A stretch of 63,093 nt of DNA, the filler included, from Globobulimina sp. (lineage: Eukaryota), in NCBI GenBank assembly GCA_003354225.1. It is 25 parts of 25 records of this genome, joined end to end, with 100 filler letters (N's around TTAATTAATTAA, not from the genome) between each part and the next. Parts side by side here need not be neighbours in the genome. Positions count along the whole stretch, not along the records: positions 22,762 to 25,189 come from PIVH01006730.1; 24 more parts are not named here. One strand, written 5' to 3'. The position numbers and the translations under genes were made by a program. Below the pieces are notes generated by a model, which was given only the letters and a program-made list of their open reading frames with translations, did no database searches and was not told the origin of the DNA. Positions 22,634-25,189 of this stretch are shown piece after piece (position 1 is the stretch's first letter; every line of letters starts with the position of its first letter).

Positions 22634-22761
22634 CTAGCTACTCAAATAACTCAATTCCAACNNNNNNNNNNNNNNNNNNNNNNNNNNNNNNNNNNNNNNN
22701 NNNNNTTAATTAATTAANNNNNNNNNNNNNNNNNNNNNNNNNNNNNNNNNNNNNNNNNNNN

Positions 22762-25189
22762 CTTGCATTTCAAGCAGCACTTAACAGCTCTATTAATATG
22801 GAATGATGTGTTGATATTATTGAAACAAAACGATATCACCATTTCCTATCCATTGTTACTAAGTATTTATGGTCGATGTTCATTACAAAACGCACAAGAA
22901 ATATTTGACATTATTCCGCATCAACAGAAAGATATAATATCCGTTGGTTTGATGATGAAATATTACATTCAATACAATGAACCACAACAAACCTTGCAAT
23001 TATATGATGCAATAAAACATAGAGCTGACACAGACGACGCATGTTTTATATTGGCAGTAAAAGCTTGTATCAAATGTGGCAATTTTGAAAAAGGCAAAGA
23101 AATCCATAACACCATCAAGCAAAATGATAATATTCAAATAAAAACGAGTTTGATGGAATTCTACAATCATTTTGGTGAACGGAGTGTTGCTTTGAATATT
23201 TTCGAGTCAGTCAATCAAAATAAAATTGATATTGTCTGCATTTCGACGATGATGAAATGTTTTATTGATGGCGGACATTACCAAAACGCTTTGGATTTAT
23301 ATGATAATATACATAATCACAACAATAATAACATGAAAGGAGGCGACATTTGCGATGTATTGGCGATAAAAGCTGCTATCAATTTGCGTTTGTATGAGAA
23401 AGGAAAAATGATTCATGAAAATATCAAACTAAAAACCATCATAAGTGATAAAAAAATCCATTTGAAAAACATTTTAATTACTTTGTACGGAGAATGCGGA
23501 GACATTGAGACTGCCAAACAAATATTTTCCAGCATCGATCCACACAAAAGAGATATCGCAGTGATAAATGCCATGATGAAGGCCTATCTCAATGGTGATT
23601 ACAGCGGAGAAGCGCTAAAATTATACAATAAAATCTATAAATTTAATTCGAAAAAAATCAAAACCAATCACATTTCACATTTAATGGCGATCAAAGCCTG
23701 CAAAATGGCCAAAGATTATGAAAAAGGAAAGAAAATACATGACATTATTAATGATGAAAAGATTTCAAATATTCAGATTGTAACAGCACTGATTGATTTC
23801 TATGGCAATTGCAATGACATTGGGAGTGCATTGGATGTATTCAATGGCATTTCGAAGGAAGAGATAAATATAATTTGTATCAATGCGATGATGACCGCGT
23901 ATATTGAGAATGAAGAATATGAGAATGCGTTGAAATTATATGAAGCTACGGAGATGATTAAGGATAACACCTCGCACATATTGGCCATCAAAGCTTATAC
24001 AAATATATCGCAGTTTGGGAGTGGCAAAGAAATTCATTTGAAATATTTTCAAAGCAATAATAATATTCACATCAAAACCACTTTAATTGCGCTATACGGA
24101 CATTGCGGGGATATGTTAACTGCGAAAACATTGTACGACTCGATTGTGGATAATGAGAAAGATATTTATGTGATCGATACGATGATGGAAGCATTTTGTA
24201 ACAATGATATGAATACAGAGTGCATCGAGTTATATAAAAAGATAAATACAATAAATGCAGAGTTGTCTGCGGATTTAGTGTCTTATGTCACAGTCTTGAA
24301 AGCTTGCACAAATTCAACGAGTTTGTACTATGGACGCAAAATCCACAATGAATTGGTTGCAAATCTCGATGCGCAGCTATGGCGACACAAAAATATCCAA
24401 ATCCATTTGATAAATATGTATGGAAAGTGTGGTATGTTGCAATTTTGTGACGAAATATTGTCCGATATTCGCGAGCATGAACCGTTTAAATACTTTTCCG
24501 AGATCGGAATTTGGAATGCAATGATTTTAGCGCATGGAAGGAATGGTAGTTTGTCGAAAGCACTTTCTTTTTATAAATTTATCAGCGATGAAATGAGCAT
24601 CACTGCCAATCGAAAGACATTTATTTTATTGATTACAGCGTGCAGTCATTACGGCGATATTGAACAAGCAAAATATATTTGGGAGCATGAGATTTGTGAT
24701 GCGGACATCAAATATGACGAATATGTGATGAGTGCATTGGTTGATGGCATGGCCAGGAAAGGATTATTAACGGAGGCGATGGAGTTAGTGATTAAACATC
24801 ATTGCAGATGCAAAGTGATGTGGATGTCTCTGCTGTTTGGCTGCAGGAAATATGAGGATTACGACTTAGCGACGGAGATATTTGAAGAAATCCAGCAGAG
24901 ATTTGTCGATGATGCGAGTTTTATTACTTCGGCATCGATTTTGTTGTCTAATGTTATTGCATCTGGCCATTGCGGTGTTGGTGGAAGTGATTGTGATGGA
25001 TTTGCAGAGATTGACATTTATGGCAAATTGCATAGATTTGAGAATGAGGATCAGTTTGAAGGAAATAAGTATATTTATGACGAGTTAACAGCGAAATTGA
25101 ATGGATTGCATGTCTGTGTCGGTGGTGATTACAAAAAAGAAGAAATGATGGCAGTTATGTATGGTTTGATGAACACAGAAAACGACTAT
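22762..25189 (+). CDS. PLS-class pentatricopeptide repeat protein with E1/E2 motifs and degenerate DYW-like start, partial at both ends
   Basis: Repeating P-L-S triplets, P2-L2-S2 (IWNAMILAHGRNG / TFILLITACSHYG / ALVDGMARKGLLTEA), E1 WMSLLFGCR, E2 ILLSNVIA, GFAEIDIYGKLHRF and KEEMMAVMYGLMNT. Confidence 0.9.

Follow-up and report, generated by a model that had tools for sequence, protein, structure and literature searches.

A conserved foraminiferan PPR protein resembling plant E/E+ factors and carrying a putative pseudo-deaminase remnant

Main

What might a PPR protein of land-plant style be doing in a foraminifer when the DYW domain at its end has lost the histidine that should bind zinc? 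The question is raised by one contig in the window, by which we mean the whole 63,093-nucleotide stretch of Globobulimina sp. DNA (assembly GCA_003354225.1) analysed here. The window is a series of ~2.43-kb contigs separated by N spacers, and because these contigs are ordered by size and joined by N runs (the joints, such as 22662-22761, carry TTAATTAATTAA mid-run), adjacent ORFs in it are not genomic neighbours. The tenth contig, C6730 (PIVH01006730.1, positions 22762-25189), is included whole and holds one open frame on the plus strand, from 22763 to 25189, which is truncated at both ends and runs for 809 amino acids with zero stops. No canonical intron joint was seen within this frame, and the GC content of the contig (0.346) is similar to that of neighbouring contigs. 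A fragment of a dynein heavy chain, recognized from its motifs by eye, takes up the whole of another contig (12649-15077, minus strand); it is open for 809 amino acids at a GC content of 0.45.

DYW proteins outside plants, Rhizaria included, are already known; what is new here is a conserved ortholog group with a dead DYW domain. The C6730 protein is a PLS-class PPR protein and not a DYW enzyme. That it is a non-catalytic, sequence-specific RNA binder seems to us highly probable, and its sequence marks it as a conserved protein of PLS-E/E+-like type with a putative pseudo-deaminase remnant.

Results

Most of the frame (22838-24502, residues 26-580) is a PPR array, placed by motif scan and alignment, in which an S motif is followed by five P-L-S triplets. 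A position-weight scan, seeded on the C6730 protein and retrained on 35 paralogs, recovered the five triplets in exact order over residues 58-543; across our 36 own sequences, triplet order was found in 256 of 346 adjacent motif pairs, a count in which terminal P2, L2 and S2 motifs were scored as S. Alignment places the first S motif at residue 26 and the terminal P2-L2-S2 triplet at 24503-24811 (residues 581-683, with the three motifs at 581, 617 and 653), followed by an E1 motif (24812-24913, residues 684-717) and by the first helix of E2 with a short Gly/Cys-rich linker (24914-24997; helix a at residues 718-734). This linker, ~13 residues shorter than the corresponding part of intact paralogs, replaces the second E2 helix. 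The motifs quoted in a preliminary description of this DNA are all present in the frame, and tandem P-L-S triplets that end in P2-L2-S2 and then E1 are the features of the PLS class. The best PDB match is the synthetic PPR-DYW protein 9kfx (E 1.2e-42, residues 269-734), whose alignment takes in both E1 and helix a of E2; PLS9-PPR (5iww) was also matched. Pfam detected PPR in the protein, with no match to E_motif or DYW_deaminase.

The frame continues into a shortened DYW-derived tail. A PG-box-like strand pair (24998-25039, residues 746-759 by alignment to paralogs) leads into the remnant of a gating domain (25040-25135), in which the helix is partly kept and ~26 residues, probably the beta-finger region, are missing, and then into a pseudo-active site with the helix that follows it (25136-25189). 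Alignment to intact paralogs gives the equivalents of the two HxE residues: K792 for the zinc-binding His and E794 for the catalytic Glu. The preliminary description was right about the Lys, but it missed two deletions: E1 and the PG box are 61 residues apart in C6730 against 73-79 in six intact paralogs, and the PG box and HxE are 44 residues apart against 67-74. It had also held that the absence of any E or DYW HMM match would count against the assignment, and such a match is indeed absent from Pfam. However, with a custom profile of intact foraminiferan-type paralogs (21 sequences) the 75-residue tail scored 28.5 bits, and none of 1000 shuffles exceeded 5.3. PF14432 itself recognizes the ortholog P0002, at 37.5 bits against a cut-off of 24. 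The proposed PLS-E-DYW ancestry is therefore upheld by the tail score and by the alignment of the HxE positions.

P0002 is an ENA protein that is identical to the C6730 protein at 460 of 796 aligned columns (57.8%), and its top match among our 36 own sequences is C6730 (424 bits versus 301 for the next). Its frame stays open as far as a terminal DYY, and the span from PG box to HxE is again 44 residues. At the HxE His it has Gln, it has no CxxC, and its second zinc site is broken; the catalytic Glu position is retained in both proteins. Conservation within the tail is strongest at the PG box, where 10 of 13 residues (747-759) are identical. In the ESM Atlas the tail of P0002 lies nearest to DYW/E-motif clusters (0.92), which we treat as a lead only.

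Two features of a DYW enzyme, the HxE signature and an intact gating domain, are thus missing from C6730. In the DYW enzyme OTP86, the accessible text of PMC7611903 reports, His-to-Ala and His-to-Cys mutants are inactive and removal of the gating beta-finger reduces editing activity. From these mutants and the lesions of the ortholog we infer that C6730 and P0002 are both dead enzymes. A deaminase that is still active, through another zinc ligand or through other chemistry such as the U-to-C conversion of DYW:KP, would accord with the retained Glu, and the CxxC region of C6730 lies beyond the contig end. As had been noted at the outset, the contig does stop short of that region; no overlapping contig was found in the assembly, and contigs from two sequencing runs reach 195 nt (X2) and 160 nt (X6) beyond 25189. 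However, P0002 lacks both cysteines, and even His-to-Cys inactivates OTP86 (PMC7611903, as far as its text is accessible). The His position is Lys in one protein and Gln in the other, so there is no shared replacement ligand. Nor is there the variant but intact zinc site of DYW:KP, as the His is lost in C6730 and the His and both Cys in P0002. Continued activity is accordingly highly improbable.

The plant PPR code links repeat residues to RNA bases, and the P and S motifs of C6730 and P0002 share the code residue at position 5 in 13 of 13 cases and at the last position in 11 of 13, with an array identity of 58.5%. Among 21 other proteins comparable over at least five motifs, agreement with C6730 at position 5 is at most 60%. 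The code pairs of C6730 are, in order, S:PD, P:GD, S:TD, P:SG, S:ND, P:NN, S:TN, P:ND, S:TD, P:DD, S:IE, P2:NN and S2:SC, the defined positions of which we take to read about G..UY.AU.G...Y under the plant code. Identity between C6730 and P0002 is 44% in the tail versus 60% in the array, whereas six intact pairs are 57-78% identical across the same tail stretch; by this comparison of sequences, the tail of C6730 and P0002 changes faster (is more relaxed) than that of the intact pairs.

A third protein, P0175/P0031, groups with these two (support 0.947, FastTree of P2 to E2 helix a). P0175 shares six of seven terminal code pairs with them, is 55% identical and ends 13 residues past E2 helix a, and is likely to be a second ortholog that has lost the DYW tail altogether. 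No additional dead-DYW orthologs were present among the best 150 of 363 matches, and a metagenome scan returned only two distant loci (22% and 27% identity).

Variation among sequencing runs bears on whether the gene is under selection. It is present in runs from three studies, one of which may be the source of the assembly, with ~99% identity to C6730 in X2 and ~93-94% in X6 and X7. None of the runs listed with the gene is recorded as RNA, X6 and X7 being RNA by guess only. In one source, organism C, the variants listed (40 of 143) fall in 34 codons, 19 changed synonymously and 15 non-synonymously. As only ~18% of sites are synonymous in the main listed stretch, 23445-24246 (synonymous to non-synonymous, 147:657), the 19 silent codons of 34 among these listed variants point to selection on the frame. 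Organism C also carries an in-frame deletion of 18 nt (25063-25080) within the gating remnant. In one contig of X6, 29 nt spanning the KxE remnant are missing, which shifts the frame; the segment is kept in X7, from the same sample, and its loss may be an allele or an artefact. The several tail deletions and this frameshifting variant are what decay of a pseudogene might produce, but 809 open codons, the synonymous excess and the conserved code residues oppose that view, as does the array, in which no gap was listed in any of four runs. We consider decay very unlikely.

Several lines of evidence place the gene in a foraminiferan host. A gene adjoining an intact paralog (L076) on contig C193 has its best match in Ammonia (74%, versus ~45% for Acanthamoeba), and six DYW relatives are Nonionella stella transcriptome proteins in EukProt. 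Plant matches of the C6730 protein are 21-29% identical, compared with 56% for P0002. In a 50-row IQ-TREE, from which 15 rows of a second DYW class and 40 of 65 other rows were left out, C6730 pairs with P0002 as its sister (100/98), and the two lie in a foraminiferan-type clade of 25 rows (100/100) that is distinct from plant-like, rotifer and Balamuthia sequences; C6730 filled only 45% of the columns, and the tree, being unrooted, says nothing on the donor. A 105-row FastTree agrees with this placement. A search for SSU rRNA under a stricter filter gave no match, so the host was assigned from proteins. The assembly does hold foreign DNA, including a ciliate-type cox1 and a bacterial Mrp-type gene, which might suggest that a plant or alga contributed the C6730 gene. 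Against this stand its GC content, its low identity to plant proteins, the position of its DYW domain in the foraminiferan clade, the paralog beside an Ammonia-like gene and the recurrence of the gene in runs of three studies, one possibly the source, and we regard the chance of such contamination as negligible. The non-plant host proposed earlier is thus confirmed by the clade, the neighbouring gene and the low plant identity. 'Land-plant-style', the term then applied, is apt for the architecture and not for the domain, which falls among foraminiferan rather than plant-like sequences.

C6730 belongs to a large family. PF14432 gave 35 matches from 37 candidates in the assembly, 34 of them above the cut-off, and none in 14 prokaryotic controls. 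Whether paralogs with an intact HxE exist had been posed as a check, and they abound: HxE and CxxC are kept in 29 of the 30 DYW loci fetched. The main clade takes in 12 of these 29, L001 and L004 fall outside it, and the other 15 form a second class with short tails. Tree-based cross-species partners of intact members (L003/P0008, L006/P0029, L008/P0034, L013/P0037 and L005/P0089) indicate that the DYW family is old and stable within foraminifera. With the C-terminal repeats of C6730 as query, at least 84 of 118 candidates in the assembly matched. Among the top 30, six end in DYW, one is the C6730 gene itself and 23 lack a deaminase, stopping ~30-66 residues from E1 and in many cases within E1/E2; no DYW signal was found downstream of these 23, at least 300 nt being checkable in 16. 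The preliminary description had offered two prospects, a lineage that edits or a family repurposed as non-catalytic binders. At the level of the family these are not alternatives: both kinds of member are present, as the intact loci and the deaminase-less majority of the top matches show, and C6730 is among the non-catalytic ones.

The remaining DYW loci are varied. The second class (L014, L016-L028 and L030; 15 loci) has H[SA]EKKALA and CxxC, no DYW tail and a long branch; at least one of its members, L083 (C2304), has a PLS array without normal E1/E2. L016 and L017 are each second-class genes in two frames, a T-rich run ending the first, which suggests an intron at the same position. The main foraminiferan clade does not include the intact DYW genes L001/L079 (C3365) and L004 (C21112), which are candidate donors or the product of a second acquisition; in L079 recognizable PPR motifs are few, as they are in DYW2 and MEF8, which act as trans-donors in plants. 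On C5558 (L081, 2031-2600, plus strand), a second PPR-like gene with a presequence-like N-terminus lies head-to-head with an intact DYW gene. Ten complete relatives begin with 30 residues that are, for the most part, basic and rich in Ser/Thr and that include 0-3 acidic ones, a statement about composition only and made without a control set. A MORF domain was not found in the assembly by a search that also detected none in controls.

Discussion

Our leading reading, which we advance tentatively and by analogy with plants, is that C6730 guides editing: it would bind a mitochondrial RNA site and recruit an intact DYW paralog for a C-to-U edit. A nuclear foraminiferan gene would encode a PLS-class PPR protein with a DYW domain minus the zinc-binding His and ~26 lid residues. 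The protein would be imported into mitochondria, as the N-termini of its paralogs suggest (its own is missing); its array would bind one conserved mitochondrial RNA sequence, to judge from the plant PPR code; and an intact paralog recruited in trans would make the edit, as with plant E/E+ factors. Such plant factors recruit MEF8/DYW2, and those of the E+ type keep the gating helix (PMC9522420, in its accessible text). For the guide role, intact DYW donors are available in the same genome, and the best-kept part of the tail, the PG-box strand pair, is also kept by E+ factors. Against it, host cox1, cox3 and nad7 were not found in the assembly and there is no known editing site. Further, the majority of the deaminase-less paralogs stop inside E2 helix a or shortly after it, as does P0175; since they have no E+-type PG box, a role outside editing becomes almost as likely.

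In that alternative, C6730 would be a mitochondrial RNA binder that acts in end protection, in the processing of fragmented rRNAs or split genes, or in translation, and the DYW remnant would be a structural leftover. That the code is conserved despite a difference of 40-45% between species is in keeping with a stable and essential site, and the absence of the DYW tail from P0175 and from the bulk of the closest paralogs fits as well. In retarian mitochondria, according to the accessible text of PMC10127745, the rRNAs are truncated and fragmented and nad1 is split. A leftover, however, does not readily account for PG-box strands and a post-Glu helix conserved in frame in two lineages, for a catalytic Glu position kept in both C6730 and P0002, or for the many intact deaminases in the genome, several retained as cross-species ortholog pairs.

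Alternatively, the family might not act in the host mitochondrion at all: its targets might be nuclear or cytosolic RNA, or might lie in diatom plastids that the host has sequestered. Nonionella stella, the source of the named relatives, is kleptoplastidic, and the assembly contains a non-host cob fragment, presumably diatom-like. But the complete paralogs have presequence-like N-termini, and other DYW-bearing protists edit mitochondrial RNA (PMC11946409 and PMC4758236, each as far as accessible). We consider this reading unlikely.

Seed-plant E/E+ PLS factors, which act with DYW2 and MEF8/MEF8S partners, have a PLS array, P2-L2-S2 and E1/E2 and no active deaminase of their own, all in common with C6730. 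As in E+ factors, a PG-box-like strand pair is present in C6730, and the gating helix is partly preserved; C6730 may well work as an E/E+ factor does. It differs in that its group keeps a dead, shortened remnant of the deaminase fold (full-length in P0002) rather than a stop, and in that, of the E/E+ features, E1, E2 helix a and the PG-box-like pair are present and E2 helix b is replaced. A further difference is that MORF was not found in the foraminiferan assembly (by a search that missed controls too), and the partner and target of C6730 are candidates only. As C6730 derives from the foraminiferan DYW clade, its loss of the deaminase is independent of that in seed plants. Land-plant PLS-E1-E2-DYW enzymes (OTP86; 9kfx) have the same domain order, with a match to 9kfx at E 1e-42 through E2 helix a; C6730 lacks their HxE His and ~26 residues of the gating domain, and P0002 their CxxC and second zinc site.

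Protist PPR-DYW proteins (Naegleria, Acrasis, Physarum, paradinid Ascetosporea and Balamuthia) likewise form non-plant families, and for several of them there is a link to C-to-U editing in mitochondria. Full PLS triplets distinguish the foraminiferan family from that of Physarum (mostly LS); the foraminiferan family is also much larger than those of paradinid transcriptomes (1-3 DYW found, versus 35 DYW matches) and has many deaminase-less members. In bdelloid rotifers DYW families also occur and, to our knowledge, no editing has been shown, which counts against the guide reading of C6730. Paradinids have both PPR-DYW proteins and C-to-U editing (PMC11946409, accessible text), and a 2026 survey counts 31 DYW domains in Rhizaria, which are not named by taxon in the main text and may include foraminifera (PMC13386178, in part). 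Our search of the literature, with subscription papers mostly outside its reach, found nothing on foraminiferan PPR-DYW proteins or C-to-U editing.

Put together, these comparisons allow a broader proposal, which is possible and on balance somewhat doubtful: that foraminifera have their own plant-type mitochondrial C-to-U editing and have independently arrived at a division of labour like that of seed plants, with dozens of deaminase-less PLS-E guides and intact DYW proteins acting in trans. The ortholog group of C6730 would then be a DYW-to-E transition in progress, its pseudo-deaminase kept as a docking module. Should the deaminase-less members prove to be guides, the E-class strategy would have at least two origins, and the C6730 gene, in which a conserved code is combined with a dead domain, would lend itself to studying how catalytic editing factors turn into guides. 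The large PLS-DYW family predicts RNA editing in foraminiferan mitochondria, which is directly testable. This matters in practice, as foraminiferan mitochondrial genes now serve barcoding and phylogeny, and the frameshift in miliolid cox1 and the split nad1 are unexplained. That frameshift may require post-transcriptional repair (PMC10127745 and PMC8589990), and the accessible text of these two papers on foraminiferan mitochondria contains no DNA-RNA comparison.

Searches for cox1, cob, cox3, nad7 and nad4 did not find host mitochondrial DNA in the assembly, cox3 and nad7 giving no match at all. Other pieces came to light instead. One cob fragment (L045) looks non-host and is, we presume, diatom-like. 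L042 is a bacterial Mrp/NuoN-type gene and probably a foreign piece, and L043, probably foreign too, joins a 49-residue nad4-like piece to unrelated sequence, as a chimera or a NUMT; among the 120 matches listed for that piece, none exceeded 90% and none was a named foraminiferan. The COX1 search gave ten matches, one of them cox1 and nine nitric-oxide-reductase-like. The former (L034, C24873) is a mitochondrial fragment with TGA read as Trp and a GC content of 28%, and its best matches, long insert included, are the 688-residue chains of 8b6h and 7w5z, which we take to be ciliate structures; by sequence it is foreign DNA of ciliate type. The nine others (L033 on C2729, and L035-L041) are spread over eight contigs and, in translation, all correspond to a single nitric oxide reductase gene of quinol type, the best match of L035 being 3ayf (E 8e-64). 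One copy is full-length, with a 799-residue frame, and several have frameshifts or stops. Denitrifying foraminifera carry several nitric oxide reductase copies, and those found here fit such a foraminifer.
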